A stretch of 32,000 nucleotides of DNA from Promethearchaeum syntrophicum (GCF_008000775.2 NZ_CP042905.2:3810001-3842000), one strand, 5' to 3'; shown: positions 1,236 through 29,159, counted from the stretch's first letter. A program made the numbers and translations. Notes: generated by a model from the letters alone, not told the origin.

Positions 1236-1697
1236 ATGAGCGCTTTCAAAGCAGTTTTGGTAGGAGAAGCAGGTGTCGGCAAGTCAACATTATCTCGCAT
1301 GTTGAGATGTAAACCAGTTGCAGCTTTTAGAAGGACACCTACAATTGGTGTAAACATCGAACAGGTTAAAACTGATAACGGCAATATGTGTCTATGGGAT
1401 CTTGGTGGTCAAAGACGTTTTCAATTTATGTGGAATGAATTTATGCGAGGATCAGAATTAACAATTTTAGTAACTGATAGCAGTGCAGCTAATGTTATGA
1501 TGACCAAGGACATAATTGAGCGACATATGAATAATTCAGCCGCAAAGATCATCGCAATTGCAAATAAGCAAGATCTTAAAGGACGAATGAAACCCGATGA
1601 AATCGAGGCAGCATTGGGCGTTCCAACATTTGGAATGGTTGGAATCGAGTCGTCAAATGAAAAGAAATTAAAGAAGATAATTGAAAAGAGTCTTTAG
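1236..1697 (+). CDS. Ras-superfamily small GTPase, Arf/Roc-like
   Basis: G1 GEAGVGKS, G2 Thr in RTPTIGV, G3 WDLGGQ, G4 NKQD. The post-G4 segment DLKGRMKPDEIEAALG parallels the Arf pattern NKQDL...EI...LG. Only 153 aa, with no N-terminal amphipathic helix. Confidence 0.85.
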   Translation: MSAFKAVLVGEAGVGKSTLSRMLRCKPVAAFRRTPTIGVNIEQVKTDNGNMCLWDLGGQRRFQFMWNEFMRGSELTILVTDSSAANVMMTKDIIERHMNNSAAKIIAIANKQDLKGRMKPDEIEAALGVPTFGMVGIESSNEKKLKKIIEKSL

Positions 1698-3792: not shown

Positions 3793-5682
3793 CTATCCTT
3801 CTGTTGGTTTTTCTAATTTTTCGATTTTTTCTGTTAAAATATCCACTTTTCTCTCTAACATCTTCAATCCTATCGTCAAACGATCTATTTTTCCTTGCTC
3901 TTTGTCATGGAGATCGATTTGTCGTTTTAATTGTTTGATATAATCATATAGAGTTTGACAAAATTCATCAAATTTCTCTATATCGCTAAAATCACATTCC
4001 ATTCCCAATTCCCTATTTAATCCGATTTTTGCCAGATCACCCCAATCTAGTTCCTTTGCTTTTACAGGAACAACCTGAACATTATACTCACGAGAGAGTT
4101 TAAGCTCATATTGGCAATCTACCGAATTTACTGAAGTAGGTGTGGCAATGAAGAGTACGAGTTGAGATTGTGGAACATTTTTATCCATAAAGCCATCAAT
4201 ATTTCCAGAAAGATCCCGTTCACAAAGAAATGCAATATCCACTTCTAATTGTTTTTGTAAAAATAAGCTTAACTGTTCCAATCGACAAGGTTCATAATCA
4301 ACAACAGCATGACTGATAAATACATTGATCGCCATCTTTTTCTTGCTATATTCTTTGATTTCTGGAAGTGTTTTTGCTGAAATAAGTTTGTCATTGAGTA
4401 CAAGAGGATTGTTATCAATTGAAAAATCAATCAGGTTATTTAATTTGAAAACTGAATATGGTAAATGAGTTAGCTGGTTGTTGTTAAGCGTTAAAATTTC
4501 TAATCGTGGAAAACTGCTTAGTTTATCTAGAAATTCTTTTAGATTATTATTATAAAGGTTGAGTGTTTGAAGATTGGATAAATTAAAAATCGATTTAGGA
4601 AGGAATTCTAATGAAGAATTTCCTGTAAGTTTTAATACAGTTAGAGATTTCAGATTTCCAATATGTTCTGGTAATTTCTTCAGTGATCGACAAGTTGTAA
4701 TTATTAGCGATTTTAACGAAATCAATTCTGTTAATCCATCCGAAATCACCTCCATTTTTCCAGAATTTATAATTATGGTTTCTAAACTCTTTAATTCTTT
4801 GAAATGATCTGGAAAATCATTAGCTACCAAAGTTTTAAGGCTTTTTAGATGAATGAATGATTGAGGAAATCGAATTATTTGTAGCGGGAGACTTAATTCT
4901 TCCAAAAACTCGATGTTTCCAATATGTTCTGGTAACTCTTGAATCTTAGTATCGGAAAGATCTAAAATTTTCAAAGATTTAAGACTTGCAATATCAGCAG
5001 GAAAAATTTTTAATGGATTATCGTGGAGCATTAATGTATGGAGATTTTCTTGAACAGACAATGCTTTTTCAATTTTTTCAATCAAATTATTTGATAAATT
5101 TAAAAATTTAAGGTTTTTTAGATGTTGTAAAAATTGTATTGAAACTATCTTGCAATTAGAGGCATCCAAATATTCAAGATTTTCCAATTTAATTAGTTCT
5201 TTATATAAATCAACAGCATTTGGAGCCCAATTTGGTTGACGCGTGGCGCGCAGTGCATCATCCACCGCTTTTCTTCTCTCTTCAATGGATTTATAAAATC
5301 TGTGTTGAGATTTTTGAAATTCAACTTGCCTTCTTTTGGTTTCATTTATAAATTCTGAAAAGATTTCTCCCCATGCACTAACGTCTATTGCTTTAAGGTT
5401 TGTGAGCTTCGAAATTTTGGGAATTCTTTTTATTAAATTTAATTTCTTTTCATTAATATTATCAAATCCCAATCCTAATTCCACAACATGTTGGTCTTTT
5501 GAAATAAAACCAAATTGATGTACCTTATATTTCTCGATCTGGTGTGTCTGTTCATCGATTTTATAATCATCCCATGTAATTTTATCTACATGTGATAAGG
5601 GAACACCAAATTGTTTTTCCAGTTCTTGCAGTACTTCAGCTTCCTCTTTTATCAATTCAATATTTTCGTATTTTTCTGACAT
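3793..5682 (-). CDS. LRR-TIR-coiled-coil protein
   Basis: About 11-12 leucine-rich repeats at roughly aa 165-445 (4348-5190), of the LPxxIGxLxxLxxLxLxxN type (QELPEHIGNIEFLEEL, KKLPEHIGNLKSLTVLKL, LQTLNLYNNNL, LEILTLNNNQLTHLP). The TIR-like domain starts at M450 (ATG 4333-4335): MAINVFISHAVVDYE...FLCERDLSGNIDGFMDKNVPQSQLVLFIATPTSVNSVDCQYELKL. The C-terminal heptad-rich tail is KRQIDLHDKEQGKIDRLTIGLKMLERKVDILTEKIEKLEK. No predicted TM segment or signal peptide. Confidence 0.75.
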   Translation of the reverse strand: MSEKYENIELIKEEAEVLQELEKQFGVPLSHVDKITWDDYKIDEQTHQIEKYKVHQFGFISKDQHVVELGLGFDNINEKKLNLIKRIPKISKLTNLKAIDVSAWGEIFSEFINETKRRQVEFQKSQHRFYKSIEERRKAVDDALRATRQPNWAPNAVDLYKELIKLENLEYLDASNCKIVSIQFLQHLKNLKFLNLSNNLIEKIEKALSVQENLHTLMLHDNPLKIFPADIASLKSLKILDLSDTKIQELPEHIGNIEFLEELSLPLQIIRFPQSFIHLKSLKTLVANDFPDHFKELKSLETIIINSGKMEVISDGLTELISLKSLIITTCRSLKKLPEHIGNLKSLTVLKLTGNSSLEFLPKSIFNLSNLQTLNLYNNNLKEFLDKLSSFPRLEILTLNNNQLTHLPYSVFKLNNLIDFSIDNNPLVLNDKLISAKTLPEIKEYSKKKMAINVFISHAVVDYEPCRLEQLSLFLQKQLEVDIAFLCERDLSGNIDGFMDKNVPQSQLVLFIATPTSVNSVDCQYELKLSREYNVQVVPVKAKELDWGDLAKIGLNRELGMECDFSDIEKFDEFCQTLYDYIKQLKRQIDLHDKEQGKIDRLTIGLKMLERKVDILTEKIEKLEKPTEG

Positions 5683-6236: not shown

Positions 6237-7490
6237 ATGAACAAAGATAAAAAAATAAAATATTCTGCCTTAATATTTTTAATTTTAACCAGTTTTTCAA
6301 TTATTAACGTTAAATCTATTAATGTAAGTAGCATTCAAAATTCAGGGTTTGATTATGACATATGGCATATGAGTGATAATCTAACAACGGATTATATGGA
6401 TATCTCATATAAACAAATATCACGTGAATCTGTATATGGTGATGATTATTTACAACGTTCTATAGAAATTAAATTCTTAGATGGAACTAATTCACAATTT
6501 TCTTATGCAATCGATTTATCATTCAATGATACAGGAGTGGACCTAGAAAATCATGCTGTTCTTGATTGGTCAAAATATAATGGAATATCCCAATACATTG
6601 AAACAGAAACTGGGTATGGAAATCTCACAATTGATACTCGTTATCTATTTTACGGAATGGCAATTGGAAAAGGTAATGCAAGTCAAATTGCTTTGGGAAA
6701 TTATACATGGACAAATGAACTTGGAGATGATTGTTGGCAATTAGGTCAAGAAAATGAAAGTGCGTTCATCGATTACGGCAATAAAAGTGTTTTTGGAGAG
6801 GTTATATATGAAACGTATAATTATACCTATGAAAATCAAGAATACAAAGATATCATGATCTATTTTAATGTTACAATGGATGGACAAATTGGATTTGAAA
6901 ATCAAATGAGATATCTACCAATCATTATGCCCATTCAGATACATCATAATGTCACTGAAACTTCTTATAAATATGGTTTTGATATGGATTTTTCAGAAGC
7001 TAAAGATTTCTCAACGAACAGTCAACATGAATTATCTGATGGGGATGAATATTTTCTTTTACAAACAGATAAACTTTCTGTATGGTATAGTATTTTTAAT
7101 CAAGAAGATGCTGGTCCAGATGGAGATATTAATCAATTTAGTTCAAATGAAAATAATGATATTGCAGAATTTAATGTAAATGGAATTCCAGTATATCAAC
7201 ATTTTCCAACTTATTATAAATTGGATAATGAAACCTCGGAACGAGAAACTACAAGATTATACTATGAAATTGGTTCAAAAGATCCGGTTTATTTTTCAAC
7301 AATGTTCTTATTATTTGATGGGTTTAAATATAACCAAACATCAAGATTTTATTTTGATCCAAAAATCATTGTTCCAAATATATTAGAGAAATCATCCAAC
7401 ATTCCGGGATTTTCTTTTTATCCTTTAATAAGTGCACTATTTGTTTCGATTTTCCTAATAAAAATCCGTTTAAAAAAGAACTTAAATTAA
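6237..7490 (+). CDS. Secreted, sequon-rich surface protein with PGF-CTERM-like anchor
   Basis: N-terminal signal (KIKYSALIFLILTSFSIINVKS). I count 13 N-x-S/T sequons in 417 aa. The C-terminus is NIPGFSFYPLISALFVSIFLIKIRLKKNLN: PGF (7404-7412), a hydrophobic helix, then a basic tail. Confidence 0.6.
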   Translation: MNKDKKIKYSALIFLILTSFSIINVKSINVSSIQNSGFDYDIWHMSDNLTTDYMDISYKQISRESVYGDDYLQRSIEIKFLDGTNSQFSYAIDLSFNDTGVDLENHAVLDWSKYNGISQYIETETGYGNLTIDTRYLFYGMAIGKGNASQIALGNYTWTNELGDDCWQLGQENESAFIDYGNKSVFGEVIYETYNYTYENQEYKDIMIYFNVTMDGQIGFENQMRYLPIIMPIQIHHNVTETSYKYGFDMDFSEAKDFSTNSQHELSDGDEYFLLQTDKLSVWYSIFNQEDAGPDGDINQFSSNENNDIAEFNVNGIPVYQHFPTYYKLDNETSERETTRLYYEIGSKDPVYFSTMFLLFDGFKYNQTSRFYFDPKIIVPNILEKSSNIPGFSFYPLISALFVSIFLIKIRLKKNLN

Positions 7491-7494
7491 TTCA

Positions 7495-7506
7495 TTTTTT
7501 TTTTTT
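7495..7506 (+). terminator. Oligo-T tract (T12) 5 nt after stop
   Basis: T12 at 7495-7506, directly after the 7490 stop. Confidence 0.45.
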
Positions 7507-7600
7507 CCATACATTATATATTATTAATTTTTATTTTCAGATGTAAATAATTAATTTTTTCCGAAAATTTTTACATTATTTCTGAAAACTCACAGGAAAA

Positions 7601-7990
7601 CTACTCCTCAAATTTTAATGAAATCGAATTTACACAATATCTTTTACCTGTGGGTTCTGGACCATCATTAAAAATGTGCCCTAAATGACCACCACACTTA
7701 CTGCAGAGAATTTCATCCCTAATCATTCCCAAACTAGAATCTTGTTTAATATCGATTTTTTCTTTTTTTGCAGCGAAGAAACTTGGCCAACCACAACCCG
7801 AATCAAATTTTGTATTTGAATCAAATAGTGGATTGCCACAACCAGCACAATGATATATTCCCTCTTCTTTTTTGTCCAAATATTTCCCTGTATAGGGTAT
7901 TTCTGTTTCCTTTAAACGTAGAACCCTAAATTCTTCGTCTGTTAATTTCTCGCGCCAATATTTAATATCTTTGTTAGTGTTGTTACTCAT
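7601..7990 (-). CDS. msrB: Peptide-methionine (R)-S-oxide reductase MsrB
   Basis: Zn-binding CxxC pairs (CAGCGNPLF; CSKCGGHLGHIF), GWPSF and the catalytic RYCVNS motif. The ORF extends to 8056, but the first 22 codons (MYFTFILKQILLKNIDFLIALK) look non-native. I prefer the ATG at 7988-7990 (MSNNTNKD...). Confidence 0.9.
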   Translation of the reverse strand: MSNNTNKDIKYWREKLTDEEFRVLRLKETEIPYTGKYLDKKEEGIYHCAGCGNPLFDSNTKFDSGCGWPSFFAAKKEKIDIKQDSSLGMIRDEILCSKCGGHLGHIFNDGPEPTGKRYCVNSISLKFEE

Positions 7991-8103
7991 TTTCAAAGCA
8001 ATTAAGAAATCAATATTTTTTAAAAGAATCTGTTTTAGTATAAAGGTAAAATACAAAGTATTTTTTTAGGAATAAATAAATTTTGTGTGTTTTTCTCATT
8101 ATT

Positions 8104-10671
8104 ATGGATAAATTAGATGATATTCATTTTAGACTGAAAAATCATGGAGATTTTGCAAGTCCCAATGTCGAGAAAAATTACCGACCTTCATTAGAACTTG
8201 AACCAATTCATCAAATTATTAAACTTAAATTTGATTTACCTAATAAAAAAGCTGAAGGGGTTGTTACTACAACTATTAAAGCTAATGGAATTGCACCAAA
8301 CCACATTAAATTTGATGCGATGGATTTAAATATTCTCTCTGTCAAAGGACCAAATAGATGGGATTATGATGGGAAATATATTGACTTATATTGGGAATTA
8401 CCTTTCACGAAAGGAGAGAAACGAGATGCCACTATTGAATACGAAATAGCTAATCCAATTACAGGTATGTATTTTAGTTATCCCGATGAAAAGTATCCAG
8501 ATCGACCAAAATATGCAGTAACTGATAATGAATCAATAAGGGCTCGATACTGGCTTCCTTGTGTTGACCACCTATCTATTCGTTGTGGGGTTGATTACTT
8601 CCTTACATCGAATAAAGAACATTTCATCTTAGCAAATGGAAAATTAGTTGAAGAAAGAGATAATGGAAATGGAACAAAAACGGCTCATTGGAATCAAAGT
8701 TTTCCAAGCCCAAGTTATTTACTAACATTAGCCGTAGGAGAATTTATTGAATATAAAGACAATCCCGCTGATGCAGGAAAGGGTAAAATTCCCTTAGCTT
8801 ATTATACAACCCAAAATTTTAAAGTAGAAGATTTAAAGCGCGCCTTTGATAAAACGGGTAAATATTTAGCGTGGTTTAATAAAAAATTACAATGCCCTTT
8901 AGAATGGGACAAATACTACCAAATTGCAACGGCTCATCATGGAGGAGCAATGGAAAATATTAGTTTTGTTACTTGGGGCGATTTTGCAATAGTTAATGAA
9001 AAAGAATCTAAAGAATTTCAATATATTGTCGATCTAATTAACGTCCATGAAATGGCGCATAGCTGGTTTGGAGATATGATCGTTTGTAATGAGTTTAGTA
9101 CGGCTTATTTAAAAGAAAGCTTCGCTGTTTTTATGGAGTCGATTTATTTCAAGGAAAATGTAAATTATGACACTTATCTTTACGAACTCTATTTAAATGC
9201 AAATAAATATATGGAAGAATCCGATAACAAGTATGCTAGACCTATTGTAACTAACAAATATGACAGTTCTTGGGATATGTATGATATGCATCTTTATCCT
9301 GGAGGAGCATGGCGTATTCATATGTTACGAAATATCGTGGGAGAAAATGTCTTTTGGGAAGCAGTCACAGACTATTTGAATACCTATAAAGGAAAAACTG
9401 TTGAAACACTCGATTTCCAGAGAAAACTGGAGGAACATTCTGGTTTAAGTTTAGAAGCTTTCTTTGAACAATGGTTTTACAGCCCCGGCTATCCGAAATT
9501 GAAAGTTTCCTTTTCATATAATGACAAAACTCATCTCGGGTCCCTAAAGGTAGAACAAACTCAAGAAGATAAGAAGAAGAAAATTGGAATTTTTAAGTTT
9601 CCATTAGATGTAAAATATGAAATTGATGGAAGAATAATTACTCAGACATTTCAGATAAACGAAAAAGAGCAAACACTATTTATACGTTGTGATAAAAAAC
9701 CCAAACAAATTGTTCTTGATCCAAATTTTATAACTCTCTTCTCTTTGGAATTTAATCCAGGATCCGATATGTTAATTCACCAGCTTCGATCAGATGCAAA
9801 TAATATTATTGATCGAATTCGAGCTGCAGGTGAGTTAGCGAAAGAAGGTAAAATGAGCAATTTGAAAGCTATTGAAGAAGCGTATAACAAGACCGATTTC
9901 TGGGGAATAAAGAATCAGTATGCAAAAATCCTTGCAAAATCACCTAATTTCGAAGGAATTAAGATTATAATTAGAATTTTAGAAACTGAAACAGATCCAA
10001 TGGTTTTAAAAGAATTAATTGGATCTTTAATGAATTCTCGCTATGAAATCGTGTTTGAAGCTATGAAAAAATATCTCCAACGTGAAGATAAGCTATATTG
10101 GGCAACGTATCGAGCATTATTAGTAATGGGATCGCAGCGAAATGAAAAAGCTTTTGAGTTCTTAAACAGTTATCAAATAGATGAGGATTTTAAATTCATC
10201 ATACAAAAGGGATTAAATACTGCAATTGGAAAAACTCGCTCAGAAAAAGCCATTGATTATTTATTAGAGCGTTTACCATATGGAAAAGAACCAGAATATG
10301 TAAGAACCTCAACTATCAGTGCATTAGGAGAAGTTACGCAATGGTCAGAGAAATATATAAAAGAAAAAGTTATGAATCAGTTAACAGATTTACTAAAAAC
10401 TGAAAAAAATGAGAATGTAATTCAAACAATTAGTCGAACTTTAAGTGGGTTTAAAGATGCTCAAGTCATTTCTTCAATCGAAAATGCAAAATTTAAGATG
10501 GCCACTCAAGATCATCCTTCTGTAGATCGTCGCATCAAGTCGATAACTAAGGGAAAAACTGCTGAGAAAGAAAAAGCTCAACTTCAAACAGATTTAGATG
10601 AAATAAAAAAGAAAATGAAAAAATTATTTGCCAAAGTTGAAGTTTTAGAAGCAAATTCTAAAAAGTATTGA
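8104..10671 (+). CDS. M1-family zinc aminopeptidase (aminopeptidase N-like) with C-terminal HEAT-like repeats
   Basis: Exopeptidase motif GGAMEN; zinc motif HEMAHSWFGD with a downstream Glu (LKESFAVFME). The C-terminal roughly 280 aa are helical-repeat-like (RIRAAGELAKEG, RTSTISALGEV). The ORF track starts at a TTG (8083); the ATG at 8104 (MDKLDD) is more plausible. Confidence 0.9.
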   Translation: MDKLDDIHFRLKNHGDFASPNVEKNYRPSLELEPIHQIIKLKFDLPNKKAEGVVTTTIKANGIAPNHIKFDAMDLNILSVKGPNRWDYDGKYIDLYWELPFTKGEKRDATIEYEIANPITGMYFSYPDEKYPDRPKYAVTDNESIRARYWLPCVDHLSIRCGVDYFLTSNKEHFILANGKLVEERDNGNGTKTAHWNQSFPSPSYLLTLAVGEFIEYKDNPADAGKGKIPLAYYTTQNFKVEDLKRAFDKTGKYLAWFNKKLQCPLEWDKYYQIATAHHGGAMENISFVTWGDFAIVNEKESKEFQYIVDLINVHEMAHSWFGDMIVCNEFSTAYLKESFAVFMESIYFKENVNYDTYLYELYLNANKYMEESDNKYARPIVTNKYDSSWDMYDMHLYPGGAWRIHMLRNIVGENVFWEAVTDYLNTYKGKTVETLDFQRKLEEHSGLSLEAFFEQWFYSPGYPKLKVSFSYNDKTHLGSLKVEQTQEDKKKKIGIFKFPLDVKYEIDGRIITQTFQINEKEQTLFIRCDKKPKQIVLDPNFITLFSLEFNPGSDMLIHQLRSDANNIIDRIRAAGELAKEGKMSNLKAIEEAYNKTDFWGIKNQYAKILAKSPNFEGIKIIIRILETETDPMVLKELIGSLMNSRYEIVFEAMKKYLQREDKLYWATYRALLVMGSQRNEKAFEFLNSYQIDEDFKFIIQKGLNTAIGKTRSEKAIDYLLERLPYGKEPEYVRTSTISALGEVTQWSEKYIKEKVMNQLTDLLKTEKNENVIQTISRTLSGFKDAQVISSIENAKFKMATQDHPSVDRRIKSITKGKTAEKEKAQLQTDLDEIKKKMKKLFAKVEVLEANSKKY

Positions 10672-10702
10672 ATGCATTTCTATTTTATTTCATTTTTTTT
10701 CT

Positions 10703-11308
10703 TTACCGTGAAAGGTATGAACTTGCAGCTATATGTGCCAAGCGTAGTGGCTCAGGAATTGCAGAATATTCAGACAAGAACTTTAAAAGTTCAACAATTT
10801 CCTTCTTGGTGATACCAATTGCGTGAAAAAATATTTCCCTTGTAATTTTAGGATCTTGATTTATACTTACAATTAATGAGTCAATTTTTGGCAATTTTTT
10901 CAATATTTCTATTTGTTCATCACGTTCGGGAAAAACCTGACTGTAAATTTCACTAATTATAGTTTTAGGTTTCTTTCCAGGCAATAATAAAATCGGAATT
11001 TTAGTTTTTTCATATATTTCAAAGGGATTTGGGGGATTAAACCCTCCTAAAGTAGGTGAATCAATCATAATTAAGCGTATTTCATTCCTATAAGGATTCT
11101 TTTTAAATAAGCGAATAACTTCATTGGTTGAATCTGTTCCATCAATTTCAATTTTTCCATAAGAAAGGTGAAGGAGTTGAATTCCTCGAGTTGTAACCCC
11201 TACTAAAGGAGTTGTGGGGATAAAATCAGTTTTTTTAATATATTTTGCCAAATCTTCTTTTGAGTGTTGACCATCATCAAAAGCCATAATAGAAATTTTT
11301 TTTTTCAC
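10703..11308 (-). CDS. DUF99/UPF0215-family protein
   Basis: MAFDDG...LVGVTTRG...IEIDGTDSTNEVIRL...IRLIMIDSPTLGGFN matches the remembered DUF99 pattern (G-x-DDG, V-x-x-R-G, DG-x-D-x-T, GFN). The ORF start is a GTG overlapping the upstream stop (GTGA, 11305-11308). An alternative ATG lies at 11285-11287. Confidence 0.5.
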   Translation of the reverse strand: MKKKISIMAFDDGQHSKEDLAKYIKKTDFIPTTPLVGVTTRGIQLLHLSYGKIEIDGTDSTNEVIRLFKKNPYRNEIRLIMIDSPTLGGFNPPNPFEIYEKTKIPILLLPGKKPKTIISEIYSQVFPERDEQIEILKKLPKIDSLIVSINQDPKITREIFFHAIGITKKEIVELLKFLSEYSAIPEPLRLAHIAASSYLSR

Positions 11309-14046: not shown

Positions 14047-14706
14047 ATGGCTCCTATGGGTAGGGAAATTGTAATTATTAACGGATCTCCGCGGAAAGCG
14101 GGTTTAACTAATGCGCTAATAGAACTTTTTATTACTAAAATAAATAAATTGTCGACGCAAGGCGACCAACAACCAGATGCACATAAAATCGAATGTAAAA
14201 AAAAATAATTAAGTGAATACCATATTAATCATTGTATTGCATGTGATGCATGTCTACGAAAGCCACACGAGTGTCCTCAGTCAAAACATGATGATATGAC
14301 CAAATTAGATGCGATTCTGACACAAGCAGATGGGATTGTCATGTGTAGCCCTTCCTATTTCGCAAATGTGACGGGACTTATGAAAGATCTGATCGACCGC
14401 ACTCGTCCGCTAAAGATGGCAAAATACCGTCTGAAAAACAAATACTTTTCTGTGATCGCTACTTGGGGATTGCGAGCAGGGGGGTTGAATACGGTACAGG
14501 AAGTGCTAAACCAGTTCGCATTAATCCATGGAATGGTTGTAGTTGGGGCGGTTGGTCATCCTTTATTAATGGCGAATCTTCCTACGGAAACTGGGCAAAT
14601 GGAACACTTAAAAGAATTTCGGAATCCAGCAGTAATTAGTGAGGTTGCCCAAATCAATGTGGAAAGTCTCGCCCAGAGATTTTGGGATTTAATGCAAGAA
14701 TATTAA
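14047..14706 (+). pseudogene. Iron-sulfur flavoprotein (Isf / NADPH-dependent FMN reductase family) interrupted by an in-frame TAA at 14206-14208
   Basis: From the ATG at 14047 I read MAPMGREIVIINGSPRKAGLTNALIELF...HKIECKKK, then TAA. The same frame continues LSEYHINHCIACDACLRKPHECPQSKHDDM... into the listed ORF 14296..14706. GSPRK is the flavodoxin-like FMN loop. C-x2-C-x2-C-x5-C matches the compact Isf [4Fe-4S] motif. SPSYFANVTGLMKDLIDR is the family core. Confidence 0.7.
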
Positions 14707-14804: not shown

Positions 14805-16457
14805 TTAGCGTTTTCGCTTGAAAACGAATATAATTCCGATCCCTACACATAAAAGGATTAAACTTAAGCTGGGTCCGGGGATATTTAATGATACTTCGAT
14901 TAATACATCATAATATGCTCCGAAATAGCACCTATCATCTAAGGTAGGATCAATTAACAATCCTACATGAATTTGACCTTCATATGCCCCAGGATAATGC
15001 ATTTCCCAACTCTTATTCACGCTTGCATCAGCAGCCAAATTTCCGATCGTTTGATTTTGACCTCCATTGTTCACATATTCTGGTCCACCATCACTTTTTA
15101 TACCTGATTCTATCTCAAAATTGTATGTATCTGGACCGAGATTTTTCATCTCCATACTAACTATGACATTATCCGGGTATGTAGTGTTAAATGCAGATAA
15201 TGCTAATGTATATTCAACTTCATGACCCCATTCCCCATTTATCGTTTGCAATATTTCCATTCTTCCTCTATAACTTGTTAGTAACAGTACATCATCCGTT
15301 ACCGGATTCACGCAAATTTCATGGTTACCTTCTCCTTGGGTATATACCGAATAGGAAAAGTCGGTAAGAGTCTCGGAAACCCAACCACCCGAGCGATTAG
15401 TGGTATAAACTATCTGTTGAATTTCATTCTCTGTAACAACGCTGAAAACTAAAACGTTATCGTTAGCATCTAAAGCCATTTCTGGGTAATTTGAAACAGG
15501 TCCGATTTTATATGCATCCGAACCATCGGTCGTGGCATTTATTACATCATAATATAACCCAGAATTTTCTTCGTCCCAAGAGCCATTTTCCAGCTGATAA
15601 ATTTGGTTGTAAATAAAGTGAATTGTATCGGTAGAATCGATTTTTATATTTGGTGATTCGCACTTCGAACCATAAATTGGGGATTTCTCCGCAATGCACC
15701 GAGGAGAAGATTCAATCCCACTGGGCGAGATTGTTACATAATATATTGAATTATTGACCTGGAATACAATGTGGGCCAAACCCGTCGAGTCAACAGCCAT
15801 TTTAGGGAAGAATACATAATGAAGAGGGTGTGATTCCTCGTAGCTAATAATATGTCGGGTATAGTTAACGGATTCCGAATCTTCCTCATCAGCAAATTCA
15901 GCAAGGGTAAGATTAGTATATACTAACCCATCATCATCATAACTGATCATATAGATCATTGAACCTGATGGGTTTCCCGTGATTCCAAATGAGAGTTGAC
16001 TTCCTCCGACCCCTTTCTGGTACCAAGATCCATCAGCAGTTTTATTTGTAATATAATTAACAAAAGTTGCTCCATGGGAGTAAATGTGCACATCCCCTTC
16101 ATTATCTACATAAATATCATTGGCTTGAAAGTTGACATATGTAGGATCGATTAATAATTCAGGTTCTGACCAACTTCCCGTAGCATTATCAATATAGTAA
16201 ACATTATGTCCTTCTTCCCAAGTACCGCTATACACAATTGATACAGTTCCTGTTGGACCAATAGCCATATCTCCTTCAAGAGTAAAATCATCCAAATACT
16301 CCCAATAGGGTACTATAGCCGTTTTTGGTCCCACTATTAGTGTTTCTGTTGGGTATCCGTAGCCATTTACCTGATTAATTGCTAAATTGCTTCCTATCAA
16401 AAATACGAAGATCCCCAGCAGAAAAATTCTTTGCTTTGTATGTTTCATAAAATTCAC
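14805..16457 (-). CDS. Secreted beta-propeller-like protein with CARDB/Ig-like module and C-terminal membrane anchor
   Basis: Signal peptide (RIFLLGIFVFLIGSNLAINQVNG). Seven spaced repeats of a D/P-x-x-G/D-x-hydrophobic strand: PTGTVSIVYS, DNEGDVHIYS, NPSGSMIYMIS, DSTGLAHIVF, DSTDTIHFIY, DANDNVLVFS, PVTDDVLLLTS. CARDB-like VIVSMEMKNLGPDTYNFEIE. C-terminus NIPGPSLSLILLCVGIGIIFVFKRKR. 11 N-x-S/T sequons. Confidence 0.6.
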   Translation of the reverse strand: MNFMKHTKQRIFLLGIFVFLIGSNLAINQVNGYGYPTETLIVGPKTAIVPYWEYLDDFTLEGDMAIGPTGTVSIVYSGTWEEGHNVYYIDNATGSWSEPELLIDPTYVNFQANDIYVDNEGDVHIYSHGATFVNYITNKTADGSWYQKGVGGSQLSFGITGNPSGSMIYMISYDDDGLVYTNLTLAEFADEEDSESVNYTRHIISYEESHPLHYVFFPKMAVDSTGLAHIVFQVNNSIYYVTISPSGIESSPRCIAEKSPIYGSKCESPNIKIDSTDTIHFIYNQIYQLENGSWDEENSGLYYDVINATTDGSDAYKIGPVSNYPEMALDANDNVLVFSVVTENEIQQIVYTTNRSGGWVSETLTDFSYSVYTQGEGNHEICVNPVTDDVLLLTSYRGRMEILQTINGEWGHEVEYTLALSAFNTTYPDNVIVSMEMKNLGPDTYNFEIESGIKSDGGPEYVNNGGQNQTIGNLAADASVNKSWEMHYPGAYEGQIHVGLLIDPTLDDRCYFGAYYDVLIEVSLNIPGPSLSLILLCVGIGIIFVFKRKR

Positions 16458-22446: not shown

Positions 22447-23046
22447 ATGGTCAAAGCAGAAGAAGATATTGGAAGAGTAAAAATTGTAAATGGAAGATAT
22501 AAATTAAGTGGAAAATTCCATATTCCTGAAGCAAATCAACCAATTTTTAATGAAGATACTGGAAAATTGGCAGGCATAACCAATCCAAGAGATATGACTT
22601 ACGTACATTCCTACGGTGGGGAAGCGATTTTCTTTGAAGGAATAGCTACAGGAAAACTTTGGGCTTCACGTTGTGATAACGAAAAATGCGCAAATCCTGG
22701 AACTATCTATGAACCATTTAGAATTTATTGCCCTGATTGCCTAAGGAAAGCAACACCAATAGATATCACAGAAAAGGCGCGAAAAACTGCAAGAGTTCAT
22801 TCATATATAATAACCGCACGTTCTGGGGCCTTTAATTCTCTAAAATTGCCAATAAAATTTATAAATGTTGAATTTGAAGGTGTGGCTACAATTTTAATGG
22901 GATATCTATCCGTGGGAGAACCAGAAATGGGAATGCGTGTTGTGCCCATTTTTAATACTAAAAAACCAACCTATACAATTGTTGACATCTCTTGGGTTCC
23001 TGAAGGTACTAAAGAATCAGAATTACCAGAAGGATTTACTTTTTAA
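22447..23046 (+). CDS. DUF35 (Zn-ribbon + OB-fold) acyl-CoA-associated protein
   Basis: Zinc ribbon CDNEKC...CPDC, followed by an OB-fold-like segment (ARVHSYIITARSGAFNSLKLPIKFINVEFEG...MGMRVVP). Canonical partner position immediately after a thiolase-fold gene. Confidence 0.8.
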   Translation: MVKAEEDIGRVKIVNGRYKLSGKFHIPEANQPIFNEDTGKLAGITNPRDMTYVHSYGGEAIFFEGIATGKLWASRCDNEKCANPGTIYEPFRIYCPDCLRKATPIDITEKARKTARVHSYIITARSGAFNSLKLPIKFINVEFEGVATILMGYLSVGEPEMGMRVVPIFNTKKPTYTIVDISWVPEGTKESELPEGFTF

Positions 23047-24752: not shown

Positions 24753-24863
24753 ATGAAAACTAATTGACCAATTTATCTCTTATATTTTTTTAAGATTTCT
24801 ATTATCTTGTTAAATCTATCTGTGTAGAACTATTAAAAATCTTCCTATTTTCTTCCTATTTTC

Positions 24864-24871
24864 TTTATATA
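24864..24871 (+). promoter_or_regulatory. TATA-like box TTTATATA about 32 nt upstream of the 24900 ATG (own promoter, near-leaderless mRNA)
   Basis: Located in the 147-nt spacer after the MaoC gene. No SD-like sequence precedes the ATG. Confidence 0.35.
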
Positions 24872-24899: not shown

Positions 24900-27800
24900 A
24901 TGCAAAATTCTTCAACAAATCAGAATTATATTGGAATTAATATTGGATCCGTCTCTGTTAATGTTGTAATTTCTGATAATTTTGGAACTTTTAAGTGCGA
25001 AAAAAAAGCCCATTTTGGAAATCCACAGCAAATTTTAAAGGAAATTCTTGAAAAATACGAAAATGGAGACCAGAAATTTTTTGGAGTTTCGGGTACATTT
25101 GGAATTGTTTCTGAAATTACAGCTATTGAAAGAGCACTTGCCTCTTTAGAAAAAAAATATGATCTAATTCTTTCTCTCGGGGGGGAGGCATTCATTTTAT
25201 ACGTTTTGGATTCAAATGGACACATTGTAAACATTTTATCTCAAGATAAATGTGCTGCTGGAAGTGGAGAATTTTTCATACAACAAATTGAAAGATTAAA
25301 TCTGCCATTGAATGAAGCAATTGACTTAGCAGAAAAAGGTGAGGATATTCAGATAGCATCGCGCTGTTCAGTTCATTGTAAATCAGATATAACTCATAAA
25401 TTGAATAAAGGAGAAGCATCAATTGAAGATGTTCTTTGCTCTTTAGTATCCAATATGATCAATAAAGGGATTGGTCTAATTTATCAATCTCGAGTTAATT
25501 TAACAAACCTTTTAATAATTGGGGGACTTTCACTTAACAAAGTTGTTCTTCAGAAATTACGAAAGGCTTTACCTGAAGCACATGTAGATAAACTTGAATT
25601 TAGTCACGTTTTTGAAGCATACGGAACATCTTTGTTAGTACAGGATAATCCAGAATACAAAATTCCAAAATTAATCACAAATAAAACATTTTCTATGCTT
25701 CCTTCATTGCACGAATATGGACATCTTGTTAAAATCATGGAAAAACCAGGTGTCAATGAAAAATTTGATCCTCAATCTTCATATATATTAGGTATTGATG
25801 TCGGATCAACAACTACTAAAGCAATTTTGATGCATCCGAAAAATAATGCAATAATTGCATCCCATTATGGTCGCACAAATGGAAACCCAATTGAAGCTAC
25901 AAGATCATGTTTAAGGGAAATTATCAAACAAACGGGTGATGAAAGAGGAAAAATAAGTTTAGTTGGAGTAACTGGTTCAGGAAGACAAGTTGTAGCAGCT
26001 TATTTAGGAACTCCTGCAGTTTTTAATGAAATTTCTGCTCATTCGATTGGAGCGGCCTATTTTGATTCAGAAGTAGATACAATATTTGAGATAGGAGGCC
26101 AAGATGCTAAATATATGCTCTTGCAAAATGGCGTCCCAGTTGATTATGCAATGAATGCATCATGTTCAGCTGGGACTGGAAGTTTTCTTGAAGAAAGCGC
26201 CAAATGTGATTTAGATATTCATGTTTATGATATTAGTGATATTGCATTAAAAGCTCCAAAAGCTGTAAGATTTAAAGCAGATTGTGCCGCTTTTATTAAT
26301 TCTGATATTCGTACTGCCCTTCAAGAGGGCTATTCTAAACAGAATATTATTAGCGGACTTGTTTATTCTATTGTTAATAATTATCTAAATAAAGTTAAGG
26401 GGACTAGACCAATAGGAGATAAAATTTTCTTCCAAGGAGGCGTCGCAAAAAATAATGCTGTTGGTTATGCATTTGCCCAAGTAACTGGAAGAGAGATAAT
26501 TATCCCTCCGTTTCCAGAATTGATGGGTGCCTTCGGAATCGCATTAATCGCTAAATCGAAACTGGAAAAAAGAGAAATTTCATCAATGTCCTCCTCTACA
26601 ACATTGAAATCATTAATTGAACCATCATTAAAACATCTTGGTAATTTTACCTGTAAATCTTGTGATAATTTTTGTCAAATTGAAAATTATGCAGTTGGAA
26701 ATCGAAAATTCCCTTTCGGAGGGAGATGTACTAAATATGAACATTTATGGAAAGGGCAGAAATCAGCTTCGGAGAAGAAAGATTATGTATCTTTTCGTAA
26801 TGATTTAATGTTTCCGGGTAATGTTTTAATAGATAAAAAAAAAAAAATCAATGAGAAAAATCAAATTGGAATACCAAGAGCATTATTAACTCACAGTTTG
26901 TTTCCACTCTTTTCTACTTTTTTCAAAGAAATCGGATATGAAGTAGTATTGTCTGATATTGAACCTGATGCAGAATTACTACCCAATGCTCCACTGTGTT
27001 ATCCAATTCAAATTTTGCATGGTGCCATCGCCAATTTGATCAAACAAAACATTAAATTAATCTTTTTACCATATATTTACAGAATGAAGAAAGGAGAAGG
27101 ATGGTTTGATTCAACTTTTTGTCCAATTTCCCAATCTAGTTCTTATTTAGTTGCTCCAAATTTTGAAAAAGTTGAAATTCTAAAACCTGAATTAGAATTT
27201 TCAGAAGGATATGAAAAATGTCAAGAATTAATAAATTTAGCTATAGAAAAGTTATATATCCCCCATAAAATGAGTGTGGCGGCTTATAATAAAGCAGTAC
27301 GCCATCAAAATAATGTAGAAACCCAATTTATTAAAAAAGGTAGGGAAATTTTAAAAAAACTATCCAAGTCGAATGATACAGGAATCATTGTAGTAGGGAG
27401 AAGCTATAATGTTTTCCCTAAAGAAACTTCGCAATCTATTCCCAAAAAAATAACGAGTATGGGAGTTACTGTAATTCCTTTTGATTTCTTAGAAAAAAAA
27501 TCAGTAACAACTTATCCTTGGTTCTTTGCTAACTATGTTTCAGAAGCTGTTGAGCTAGTTAAAAAGCATGAGAATTTGTTTTTACTTTACATTAATAGTT
27601 ATAGTTGCACAATGGATGCTTTTGTTCAGAATTATGTACGTACAGAAATGAAATCTAAACCGTATTTACTCATGGAATTAGATGCCCATATGGCGGATGC
27701 AGGAACTCAGACTAGAATCGAAGCTTTTTTGGAAATTATTAAAAATTATCGTCATTCTTTACAGAACACTTCATCTTCAGTGTATCACATGGCAAAAGCT

Positions 27801-29159
27801 GAAACTGAAAATGGAAAAGCAGTAATTACTACATCCTCTGGTGAAAAATTGGACCCTAATGATCCTCGTGTAAAAATATATCTCCCCCCTTTCTCAACTT
27901 TCCATACCGATTTAGCGGAAAAACTTCTTACAAAATTTGGATTTAATATGGGACATACAGGTGATATAAAATTAGAATATCCCGTAGAAGGATTGAAACA
28001 CTGTTCAGGAAAAGAATGTAATCCCCTACCGGCAGTATTAGGGCATATTATGCATTTAGTAAAAAATCGTGAACCTGGAGAGGTTATAGGGTATTTTATG
28101 TTACGAGGAGGGCAACCGTGTGTTGTTTTTAGTTATTTCCAATTTTTAGAACAGTTTTTAACAAAAAATCGAATAAAGGATGTGTTTATTTTTTGTTTCG
28201 ACAAGTATAATGATTTCATGGGAGTTAATATATTAGAATATCTTCAACAAGGTCCAAAAATTGTAGTTTTAGGAGATATTATGAATGAAATTGAAAGCGC
28301 ACTTGAAGTTGTCGGGAAAGGTAAAAGTTTAGAAAAGTTTCATTCATATTGGAGAAATTTCTTGGAAAGCTTCACTGATATACAAGATATAAATCGTGAA
28401 ATGAACATACTTATCCAGAAAATTAAAAAATTGCCAATAATCGGATCACCCCAAATGTTTCCTAAAGTTTGTTTAACAGGAGATTTCTTTGTTCGGTTTA
28501 GCCCATTTTTCCTTCATGATCTAAAATCAGCTTACACGAAGAATAAGATTATTGTAAAATCATCAGAATTATTTGAACTTTTTACCTATGGTGTACCCTT
28601 TGGTAACATGGTTAGCTATAAAGTCCGAGATCAATATTTACAAAAGATACGGGCAAAATTTCATGGGAAAGATCGGATTTGGAATGATTTTTCTTTTGGA
28701 TTTTATGCAAGCCAAATTGCATATTTTGTGATGAGAATTATTGAAAAAAGAATGCGCAAAAAATTCGAAAAAACCGGTCTTCTTTTCTCTAAACCAACGG
28801 ACATCATGAAAATTGTAAAAAATGCAGAACCTCATATCAATCCAAATATTTTTGGGGAAGCTATCTTGAATATTGGAAAAGGAATTGAAATAATAAATGA
28901 TCGAGAATTTAATGGGCTTATCCTAATCGGACCCCAATATTGTTTACCTTATCGTATATCTCAAGCAATTCTTCAACCTATCTTTATTGAAAATAAATAT
29001 CCGTTTTTAGTATTTGATGCAGAAATTACAGCGATGTCTCCAAATATGAAAAGATTAATTTCTGCTAATATCGAACAGATCAACCGTAGATTTAAGAGAA
29101 TGGTTCCTGTTTTATCTGAAGACACTGTTAAAATGGAAGGAAAAAAGATATTCCTTTAA
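24900..29159 (+). CDS. Giant fusion: two BcrAD/BadFG-type (HgdC-like) activase ATPase domains + DUF2229-type C-terminal region
   Basis: ATPase 1 (about aa 1-260): IGINIGSVSVN, DKCAAGSGEFF, ASRCSVHCKSDI. ATPase 2 (about aa 295-555): LGIDVGSTTTKA, NASCSAGTGSFLE, KADCAAFINSDI, FQGGVAKN. Cys cluster C-x2-C-x3-C-x17-C at 26652-26729. The long remainder (about 850 aa) resembles the CoA-enzyme-activase-associated DUF2229 region (GIPRALL..., VVGRSYN..., LTGDFFVRF...). Confidence 0.8.
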   Translation: MQNSSTNQNYIGINIGSVSVNVVISDNFGTFKCEKKAHFGNPQQILKEILEKYENGDQKFFGVSGTFGIVSEITAIERALASLEKKYDLILSLGGEAFILYVLDSNGHIVNILSQDKCAAGSGEFFIQQIERLNLPLNEAIDLAEKGEDIQIASRCSVHCKSDITHKLNKGEASIEDVLCSLVSNMINKGIGLIYQSRVNLTNLLIIGGLSLNKVVLQKLRKALPEAHVDKLEFSHVFEAYGTSLLVQDNPEYKIPKLITNKTFSMLPSLHEYGHLVKIMEKPGVNEKFDPQSSYILGIDVGSTTTKAILMHPKNNAIIASHYGRTNGNPIEATRSCLREIIKQTGDERGKISLVGVTGSGRQVVAAYLGTPAVFNEISAHSIGAAYFDSEVDTIFEIGGQDAKYMLLQNGVPVDYAMNASCSAGTGSFLEESAKCDLDIHVYDISDIALKAPKAVRFKADCAAFINSDIRTALQEGYSKQNIISGLVYSIVNNYLNKVKGTRPIGDKIFFQGGVAKNNAVGYAFAQVTGREIIIPPFPELMGAFGIALIAKSKLEKREISSMSSSTTLKSLIEPSLKHLGNFTCKSCDNFCQIENYAVGNRKFPFGGRCTKYEHLWKGQKSASEKKDYVSFRNDLMFPGNVLIDKKKKINEKNQIGIPRALLTHSLFPLFSTFFKEIGYEVVLSDIEPDAELLPNAPLCYPIQILHGAIANLIKQNIKLIFLPYIYRMKKGEGWFDSTFCPISQSSSYLVAPNFEKVEILKPELEFSEGYEKCQELINLAIEKLYIPHKMSVAAYNKAVRHQNNVETQFIKKGREILKKLSKSNDTGIIVVGRSYNVFPKETSQSIPKKITSMGVTVIPFDFLEKKSVTTYPWFFANYVSEAVELVKKHENLFLLYINSYSCTMDAFVQNYVRTEMKSKPYLLMELDAHMADAGTQTRIEAFLEIIKNYRHSLQNTSSSVYHMAKAETENGKAVITTSSGEKLDPNDPRVKIYLPPFSTFHTDLAEKLLTKFGFNMGHTGDIKLEYPVEGLKHCSGKECNPLPAVLGHIMHLVKNREPGEVIGYFMLRGGQPCVVFSYFQFLEQFLTKNRIKDVFIFCFDKYNDFMGVNILEYLQQGPKIVVLGDIMNEIESALEVVGKGKSLEKFHSYWRNFLESFTDIQDINREMNILIQKIKKLPIIGSPQMFPKVCLTGDFFVRFSPFFLHDLKSAYTKNKIIVKSSELFELFTYGVPFGNMVSYKVRDQYLQKIRAKFHGKDRIWNDFSFGFYASQIAYFVMRIIEKRMRKKFEKTGLLFSKPTDIMKIVKNAEPHINPNIFGEAILNIGKGIEIINDREFNGLILIGPQYCLPYRISQAILQPIFIENKYPFLVFDAEITAMSPNMKRLISANIEQINRRFKRMVPVLSEDTVKMEGKKIFL

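Follow-up and report, generated by a model that had tools for sequence, protein, structure and literature searches.

A tandem-activase fusion gene of Promethearchaeum syntrophicum is a probable single-polypeptide member of the PlsA-PlsR/Ger family of radical reductases

In a stretch of 32,000 nucleotides from the genome of Promethearchaeum syntrophicum (GCF_008000775.2, NZ_CP042905.2:3810001-3842000; here termed the window, with a G+C content of 32.6%), an earlier note made from the sequence alone had drawn attention to a gene at positions 24900-29159, in which two activase domains are fused to a long C-terminal region, and had regarded it as a member of an uncharacterised family of giant fusions. 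The analysis reported here makes it fairly probable that this gene is the single-polypeptide form of the PlsA-PlsR/Ger family and encodes a self-contained ATP-dependent radical reductase of the BCR/HAD superfamily. The notion of an uncharacterised family has hence to be abandoned, because the PlsA-PlsR/Ger family has been described and its enzymes have been shown to be active in E. coli (PMC13159169, PMC12838417). Both the family and its presence in P. syntrophicum are in fact already published, Ger homologues having been reported in Asgard archaea, including Candidatus Prometheoarchaeum syntrophicum, by Sahonero-Canavesi et al. in 2022 (PMC13159169).

Two BcrAD_BadFG domains followed by DUF2229 and then by small DUF2229/HGD-D pieces constitute the 'BBD(H)' architecture of PlsA and Ger (PMC13159169). 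PlsA, first found in C. perfringens as plsA-plsR, is the anaerobic plasmalogen synthase, and Ger, the glycerol ester reductase, has been termed a 'modified PlsA' (PMC13159169). The PlsA proteins of E. faecalis, L. cremoris, B. longum and C. perfringens lead to plasmalogens when expressed in E. coli (PMC12838417), and the Ger proteins of T. maritima (Tmari_0479) and D. alkenivorans (SHJ90043) lead in the same host to 1-alkyl glycerol monoethers, under anoxic conditions only (PMC13159169). Ger and PlsA are indistinguishable by sequence (PMC11868695), and in facultative anaerobes PlsA is encoded by one gene of ~4.25 kb (PMC12838417). The gene in the window and the parts of its product, given in amino acids (aa), are as follows:

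24900-29159, + strand: putative PlsA-PlsR/Ger-type fusion open reading frame (ORF), complete and uninterrupted, ATG start, 1419 aa
24927-25649, + strand: Act1, first BcrAD_BadFG/ASKHA activase domain (aa ~10-250), putative ligands C118 and C156
25782-26552, + strand: Act2, canonical HgdC/HadI-like activase domain (aa 295-551), putative ligands C422 and C462
26652-26729, + strand: linker 4-Cys motif C585-x2-C588-x3-C592-x17-C610 (aa 585-610), invariant in 75/75 relatives including C. perfringens PlsA
26862-27740, + strand: Red1 (aa 655-947), DUF2229 followed by the C-terminal end of HGD-D, counterpart of the last third of PlsA
27876-28958, + strand: Red2, PlsR-equivalent module (aa 993-1353), BCR/HAD catalytic-subunit fold in the structure model
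29040-29153, + strand: long C-terminal alpha-helix (aa ~1381-1418), predicted in the structure model

The protein is 100% identical to a P. syntrophicum (MK-D1) protein named 'acyl-CoA dehydratase activase', and the NCBIfam model of that name, TIGR00241, matches it twice. In Pfam, BcrAD_BadFG is likewise matched twice (E 1.3e-54), DUF2229 is found at aa 655-863 (E 1.5e-52) and HGD-D at aa 873-947, with 31.1 bits against a cut-off of 28.4 but over profile positions 267-342 of 342 only. The tandem HgdC/BcrAD-type activase domains put forward by the earlier note are thereby borne out, all four of the cluster-ligand motifs that it quoted being located (DKCAAGSGEFF at aa 116, RCSVHCKSDI at aa 155, SCSAGTGSFLE at aa 421 and DCAAFINSDI at aa 461). 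The same can be said of its C-x2-C-x3-C-x17-C cluster, the coordinates of which are exactly right, and of the DUF2229-type sequence in the C-terminal part of about 850 aa, to which the HGD-D match above cut-off can be added. No convincing transmembrane helix emerged from a hydropathy scan, in which the peak value (KD19 1.78 at aa 533) lies inside Act2.

A C. perfringens reference for comparison was obtained from metagenome contigs by an exact DNA pattern search with the gene-specific end of the published plsA-plsR cloning primer. In the locus retrieved (L004), the primer match opens a 975-aa ORF that is followed by a 420-aa ORF, and the span of both (6694-10892, 4,199 bp) has the same size as the published plsA-plsR fragment (PMC12838417). 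Residues 11-947 of the fusion are colinear with residues 5-972 of C. perfringens PlsA (29% identity, E 9e-94, 313 bits), and residues 993-1353 align with residues 22-368 of PlsR (21% identity, E 3e-7). Profiles of Red1 and Red2 built from Asgard and Nitrospira-type relatives only match, respectively, PlsA 661-972 (E 1.7e-44) and PlsR 22-378 (E 9e-20). The window protein is colinear with PlsA and then with PlsR, the profile matches included, and therefore corresponds to a PlsA-PlsR fusion. Its parts come in the order Act1, Act2, 4-Cys, Red1, Red2, which is also that of PlsA-PlsR, be it the split C. perfringens pair (CPE1194/CPE1195) or the single genes of E. faecalis (EF1327), L. cremoris and B. 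longum; all 14 of the putative ligand cysteines described below are held in common, and the fused E. faecalis gene, with 4,248 bp or ~1415 aa, is close to it in size. A long C-terminal helix has likewise been discussed for models of bacterial PlsA (PMC12838417). An exact search for the 20-mer of the E. faecalis plsA primer (ATGGTTATGAGAGCAGGGAT) yielded zero matches in the species-representative genomes.

A comparison with Ger was made through a homologue from Desulfatibacillum sp., the genus of one of the validated Ger proteins. A genome scan with a Desulfobacterales relative as query returned two Desulfatibacillum sp. genomes, both metagenome-assembled, and the homologue found in this way is colinear with the fusion over its full length (aa 11-1402) at 32% identity and 723 bits, which is better than the 313 bits of C. 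perfringens PlsA. The comparison covers the Desulfatibacillum sp. protein, and the fusion is a candidate orthologue of the validated Ger proteins at most. The 'BBD...' architecture is common to Ger and the fusion; the Ger proteins of T. maritima and D. alkenivorans come from bacterial hosts, whereas the host of the fusion is archaeal.

Cysteine conservation was assessed in an alignment of 75 full-length relatives that reaches down to ~25% identity and includes C. perfringens PlsA plus PlsR. Fourteen cysteines are invariant among these relatives, with C118 and C156 present in 74/75 and a single gap accounting for the difference. They comprise C118 and C156 in Act1, C422 and C462 in Act2, C585, C588, C592 and C610 in the linker, C700, C741 and C903 in Red1, and C1040, C1074 and C1348 in Red2. 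C160, on the other hand, is present in about half of the relatives, and C774, C1035, C1099 and C1191 are variable. In HgdC the cluster ligands are Cys127 and Cys166, some 39 residues apart, and each ATPase unit of the fusion retains two ligand cysteines with HgdC-like spacing (C118/C156 and C422/C462). By sequence, PDB matches are confined to the activase part and consist of HadI (4eht), HgdC (1hux), MbdQ/P (9gai) and DCCP-R (7yyl). Act2 matches HadI at E 3e-34 and HgdC at E 6e-33, and the match of Act1 is weaker (E 5e-14).

The earlier note had placed the likely electron acceptor and catalyst in the fused C-terminal region, and structure models of this region agree with that proposal. An AlphaFold2 model of aa 560-1419 (pLDDT 84.8, pTM 0.85) was compared with the PDB through Foldseek and gave as significant matches essentially only BCR/HAD/DCCP catalytic subunits, the best being DCCP (7yyl_A/6eno), HadC (3o3m_D), BzdN/O (8s02) and MbdO/N (9gai_B). 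A second model, limited to the PlsR-equivalent part (aa 984-1419; pLDDT 88.8, pTM 0.90), returned 14 matches at E≤6e-4 and probability 1.00, all of them catalytic subunits of DCCP, Bzd, Had and Mbd. The top matches of both models have a probability of 1.00 and TM scores of 0.41-0.51 normalised to the target. As modelled, then, the C-terminal 860 aa hold two HAD/BCR-type catalytic modules that correspond to the alpha-beta pair of dehydratases and reductases, an assignment that is not shown by sequence methods alone: the family profile, when run against PDB sequences, matches activators only and no HadB/C, HgdA/B or BcrB/C chain, and homology between Red1 and Red2 is not detected by hhalign (E 0.12), so that the evidence for a duplication of catalytic modules within the protein comes from the fold matches alone. 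Ten invariant cysteines (linker, Red1 and Red2) run through this region in all 75 diverse relatives; neither a lack of conserved ligands nor a dissimilar fold was found. The statement that no dehydratase or reductase partner accompanies the gene is accordingly correct for a separate, adjacent partner but not for a partner as such, since the catalytic modules are fused into the protein itself.

These results also bear on the names under which the protein and its relatives are filed in NCBI and JGI ('acyl-CoA dehydratase activase', 'CoA-substrate-specific enzyme activase'), according to which it would be an activase only, handing electrons on to a dehydratase or reductase whose gene lies elsewhere in the genome and carrying its C-terminal region as a scaffold. 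Beyond the names themselves, this explanation can draw on the fact that solved structures are matched by sequence in the activase part only. It has to contend, however, with a catalytic-subunit fold that occurs twice in the C-terminal 860 aa, each time with three invariant cysteines as in BzdO and HadB, and with the observation that a bacterial single polypeptide, or the PlsA plus PlsR pair, suffices in E. coli, a host without these genes (PMC13159169, PMC12838417). We consider it extremely improbable.

Concerning the cofactors of the catalytic part, the [4Fe-4S]-OH2 site of BzdO is held by Cys95/128/380, and the same three-Cys pattern is present in HadB (PMC11971306); the cysteines of Red2 are spaced by 34 and 274 residues, versus 33 and 252 in BzdO. 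A double-cubane [8Fe-9S] cluster requires six cysteines per subunit, such as Cys36/73/100/263/293/327 of BzdN (PMC11971306), and was rejected for the fusion, in which Red1 and Red2 have only three invariant cysteines each. From these patterns we infer one [4Fe-4S] cluster that bridges the two activase domains, a three-Cys [4Fe-4S] site in each of Red1 and Red2, and a fourth site, with four cysteines, that would bind either a [4Fe-4S] cluster or Zn. The last of these, in the linker, takes the form of a small beta-hairpin knuckle in the AlphaFold2 model.

The fusion can be set against the known systems of this superfamily. With HgdAB plus HgdC and HadBC plus HadI it has in common an activator (Act2) that resembles HadI and HgdC, modules (Red1 and Red2) that are predicted to fold as HadB/C (3o3m) and a three-Cys site per module. 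In those systems, nevertheless, the activator is separate and homodimeric, whereas here it is duplicated in tandem within one chain and accompanied by the extra 4-Cys site; sequence similarity to HadB/C is undetectable beyond 75 residues, and the substrates are 2-hydroxyacyl-CoAs, whereas the tested relatives of the fusion act on lipid esters, with net reduction. A 2-hydroxyacyl-CoA dehydratase proper was accordingly rejected, given that HGD-D is matched over those 75 residues only, that the profile search brings up no HadB/C or HgdA/B and that the activator is fused. BcrABCD, BzdNOPQ, MbdONQP and DCCP:DCCP-R are likewise ATP-driven stoichiometric electron injectors. In the class I benzoyl-CoA reductases, two different ASKHA units (BcrA/D, MbdQ/P) feed two homologous catalytic modules, an arrangement like that of the fusion; together with DCCP they provide the best Foldseek matches, and the C-34-C-274-C pattern of Red2 resembles Cys95/128/380 of BzdO. 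The differences are that DCCP and BzdN have six cysteines for [8Fe-9S] and the fusion modules three each, and that the subunits of the fusion are joined and lack a conserved CoA-related context.

The two activase domains of the fusion are not equivalent. Act2 has canonical phosphate-1 (GIDVGSTTTK) and phosphate-2 (EIGGQDAK) motifs, the aspartates of which, D300 and D402, are invariant in 75/75 relatives. In Act1, phosphate-1 reads GINIGSVSVN versus the canonical GIDxGSTxxK, with Asn14 in place of the aspartate, and phosphate-2 reads SLGGEAF versus xGGxD, with Ala97 in that position. The earlier description of two complete ATPase domains is hence valid for Act2, and for Act1 as regards its fold and its two ligand cysteines, but not as regards its canonical acidic residues, both of which are lost. 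At the Act1 phosphate-1 position, 33 of the 75 relatives have D, 22 have C and 15 have N, and only 19/75 retain the phosphate-2 aspartate; C. perfringens PlsA, for its part, has GIDAGSTTLK in Act1, GIDAGSTTTK in Act2 and GGED as phosphate-2 of Act1. A rough neighbour-joining tree, distance-based and without support values, divides the family into two superclades, one of which contains C. perfringens PlsAR, with a canonical Act1, and the other, with a degenerate Act1, the Asgard clade, a Nitrospira-type sister group and Desulfobacterales proteins. The Desulfatibacillum sp. homologue falls in the same superclade as the fusion and has a degenerate Act1 as well. Act1 is probably a pseudo-ATPase, and we infer from the motif patterns that ATP would be hydrolysed by Act2 only throughout the superclade in which Act1 is degenerate.

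Taken as a member of the PlsA-PlsR/Ger family, the protein may be envisaged to work as follows. Act1 and Act2 would form an intramolecular pseudo-dimer with one bridging [4Fe-4S] cluster, ligated by C118, C156, C422 and C462, as their invariance and the homology with HgdC and HadI suggest. Hydrolysis of ATP, probably in Act2 only in view of the motif loss in Act1, would lower the potential of this cluster and drive an electron into the fused catalytic part, which at the fold level appears to consist of two HAD/BCR-like modules, Red1 (the PlsA C-terminus) and Red2 (the PlsR equivalent). Each of these may hold a three-Cys [4Fe-4S] cluster in which, as in HadB and BzdO, one coordination position is left open, and the invariant 4-Cys linker site may be either a relay or a structural metal site. 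Judged from the bacterial homologues that have been tested, an ester carbonyl would be converted through a ketyl-type radical into a hemiacetal-level intermediate, the dehydration of which would give the 1-alkenyl (vinyl) ether in the case of PlsA; in a Ger-type reaction, further reduction would give a saturated 1-alkyl ether at the sn-1 position of an acylglycerolipid. A Ger-like product seems somewhat more likely in Promethearchaeum because the superclade of the fusion includes the Desulfatibacillum homologue.

More than 7,600 proteins match the 1419-aa fusion at E≤1e-10. The closest matches are full-length Asgard proteins at 52-86% identity, from Loki-, Heimdall-, Thor-, Gerd- and Kariarchaeia. 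Next come proteins of bacteria, for example of Nitrospira, at ~42% identity over 98% of the length. With aa 560-1419 as query, 2,144 cluster representatives (50% identity) are obtained at E≤1e-3 and 344 at E≤1e-30; the ten 50%-identity representatives that were named belong to Desulfobacterales, Vicinamibacteria and Thermodesulfobacteriota only. A second set of Asgard copies (P0070-P0082 and P0100, labelled Heimdallarchaeota and Kariarchaeaceae) stands at 44-46% identity to the fusion, and the two of them included in the rough tree, P0070 and P0080, cluster with Nitrospira-type bacterial sequences, outside the main Asgard clade, which suggests either paralogy or separate transfers.

The earlier note had also described the gene as embedded between acyl-CoA enzymes, and the neighbours are as it described them: thiolase-like, acyl-CoA dehydrogenase and MaoC genes lie upstream, and genes for CoA-transferase subunits B and A lie downstream on the opposite strand. 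The fusion has the same orientation as the acyl-CoA dehydrogenase/MaoC genes and starts 147 bp after them; the upstream block (OCD-like, thiolase-like, a 199-aa ORF, acyl-CoA dehydrogenase and MaoC) is retained in relatives at 86% and 78% identity. A functional link, however, is not supported, the context being found in these two relatives only: in the eight loci examined, which comprise Harpocratesius, three other Loki-type loci, three Heimdall-type loci and one Nitrospira locus, all at ≤64% identity, the acyl-CoA context is absent. Moreover, in the Prometheoarchaeum relative at 86% identity, an MFS transporter gene (L016, 15014-16396) is interposed between the fusion and the two CoA-transferase genes, and the junction is thus not a fixed unit. 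Across the examined loci no partner gene recurs and the fusion gene is usually alone with changing neighbours, as would be expected for a self-sufficient enzyme. Because the synteny is limited to close relatives, with unrelated surroundings at ≤64% identity, the acyl-CoA context is best explained by recent common ancestry rather than by functional coupling, and an acyl-CoA operon was dropped as the main explanation for this same confinement.

An acyl-CoA-level radical enzyme, either a 2-hydroxyacyl-CoA dehydratase or an enoyl/acyl-CoA reductase analogue working with the adjacent genes in amino-acid fermentation, may nonetheless be weighed. Besides the same-strand position 147 bp behind acyl-CoA dehydrogenase/MaoC, the adjoining GctAB-like CoA-transferase pair and the block retained at 86% and 78% identity, it would accord with a catalytic fold common to HadBC, BzdNO and MbdON, all users of CoA thioesters, and with the report that MK-D1 ferments amino acids and lacks ester-lipid synthesis (PMC7015854). 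Yet synteny inside one genus-level lineage is to be expected from relatedness alone, none of the examined homologues at ≤64% identity retains the context, the MFS gene splits the fusion from the CoA-transferase genes in one relative, the family profile matches no HadB/C, HgdA/B or BcrB/C chain in the PDB and every experimentally tested member of the same architecture acts on glycerolipids and not on acyl-CoAs (PMC13159169, PMC12838417). Such an enzyme is therefore judged unlikely.

The DNA upstream of the fusion was credited with a TATA-like promoter, and a box does exist at a suitable position:

24864-24871, + strand: TATA-like box TTTATATA, 29-36 nucleotides upstream of the ATG

Its position would fit a leaderless archaeal transcript, but the motif stands at chance frequency in this AT-rich window (17 occurrences of TTTAWATA versus 16.7 expected by chance), and the box taken alone is no evidence for a promoter. 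Directly before the box, and within the 147-bp gap, positions 24841-24862 hold two exact tandem copies of the 11-mer CTTCCTATTTT, a repeat that could be a regulator-binding site or a product of chance in AT-rich DNA. Further upstream, the 199-aa ORF (22447-23046, + strand) comes right after the thiolase-like gene and has no Pfam match; an ORF of the same place and length is seen in two related genomes (L016 7554-8153 and L102 5484-6083), and its location is that in which archaeal thiolases usually carry a DUF35-type partner. Lipid-related genes occur sporadically beside homologues of the fusion. Acyl_transf_3 is directly upstream in a Lokiarchaeon (L014 8317-9774), SCP2 and three APH/choline-kinase-like genes flank a Heimdallarchaeon copy (L101 4357-4821, 6879-7850 and 12508-13506) and MlaC is near a Nitrospira copy (L099 6145-6807), none of them being conserved across loci.

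Several points weigh against the assignment to the PlsA-PlsR/Ger family as a lipid ester reductase. The tested C. perfringens enzyme shares no more than 25-29% identity with the fusion, which lies in the other superclade of the rough tree; the ester reductase function of archaeal members is one assigned by homology; acyl-CoA enzymes do adjoin the gene in Promethearchaeum and its close relatives; and MK-D1 reportedly makes isoprenoid ethers only and lacks genes for ester-lipid synthesis (PMC7015854). In the same vein, C. perfringens PlsA has a bacterial host and a vinyl ether product, whereas the fusion has an archaeal host without reported ester lipids, in which a vinyl ether is only a candidate product. 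The lipids described for the co-culture of MK-D1 with Methanogenium are phytane and biphytanes after ether cleavage, and the MK-D1 genome has been stated to contain no recognisable GGGP synthase and no genes for the synthesis of ester-type lipids (PMC7015854); the analysis consisted of ether cleavage and gas chromatography-mass spectrometry and was aimed at isoprenoids (PMC7015854). Ester-lipid genes have been reported in other Asgard lineages (PMC9723677), and among the annotated genes of the window there are no lipid genes.

Candidate substrates in this host include, as possibilities, a small unnoticed pool of acyl/alkyl glycerolipids, exogenous lipids or a different ester or thioester. One way of reconciling enzyme and host is that the same ATP-driven ester-to-ether chemistry is applied to another substrate, such as ester lipids taken up from the partner bacteria or from sediment, an archaeal glycerolipid that carries an acyl group or some other O-acyl compound. 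Strong family membership in a host reported to be without ester-lipid synthesis (PMC7015854), the conservation of the gene across Asgard classes nevertheless, and the sporadic lipid-related neighbours (Acyl_transf_3; SCP2 and APH/choline-kinase-like; MlaC) speak in its favour. It is purely speculative, though, those neighbours are not conserved and, given the ester-lipid genes of other Asgard lineages (PMC9723677), many hosts may have the ordinary substrate; we regard it as rather doubtful. A broader proposal, which we advance tentatively and with low confidence, is that the Asgard PlsAR/Ger-type enzyme has a non-bacterial role, making undetected fatty-acid-derived ether lipids or acting on another ester or thioester that in Promethearchaeum would be linked to the acyl-CoA genes, with a pseudo-dimeric activator and a single catalytic ATP site in either case.

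The window contains other features of interest. Positions 1236-1697 (+ strand) encode a small GTPase (Arf/Roc/Ras type, 153 aa), one of the eukaryote-signature proteins that are typical of Asgard archaea, and a 629-aa leucine-rich-repeat protein at 3793-5682 (- strand) has a weak TIR_2 match below the Pfam cut-off (26.2 bits versus 28). No Pfam match at E≤0.001 was obtained for two long ORFs, at 6237-7490 (+ strand, 417 aa) and 14805-16457 (- strand, 550 aa). An FMN_red-family ORF of 136 aa (14296-14706, + strand) covers profile positions 62-142 of 152 only, from residue 2 onwards, and looks either truncated at its N-terminus or provided with a start further upstream.

The PlsA-PlsR/Ger assignment corrects the database label 'acyl-CoA dehydratase activase', the fusion being neither an orphan activator nor an unknown giant fusion but a relative of the enzymes by which anaerobes form plasmalogens and alkyl ether lipids. 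That the acidic residues of Act1 are lost throughout the clade provides a small mechanistic lead on the ratio of ATP to electrons in this family. For the organism, the finding means that a cultured Asgard archaeon, said to be without ester lipids, keeps a well-conserved homologue of an ester-to-ether lipid reductase, the product of which bears directly on whether Asgard archaea make bacterial-like or eukaryote-like lipids. If undetected fatty-acid-derived ether lipids were indeed made, they would bear on the transition from archaeal to bacterial membranes in eukaryogenesis.

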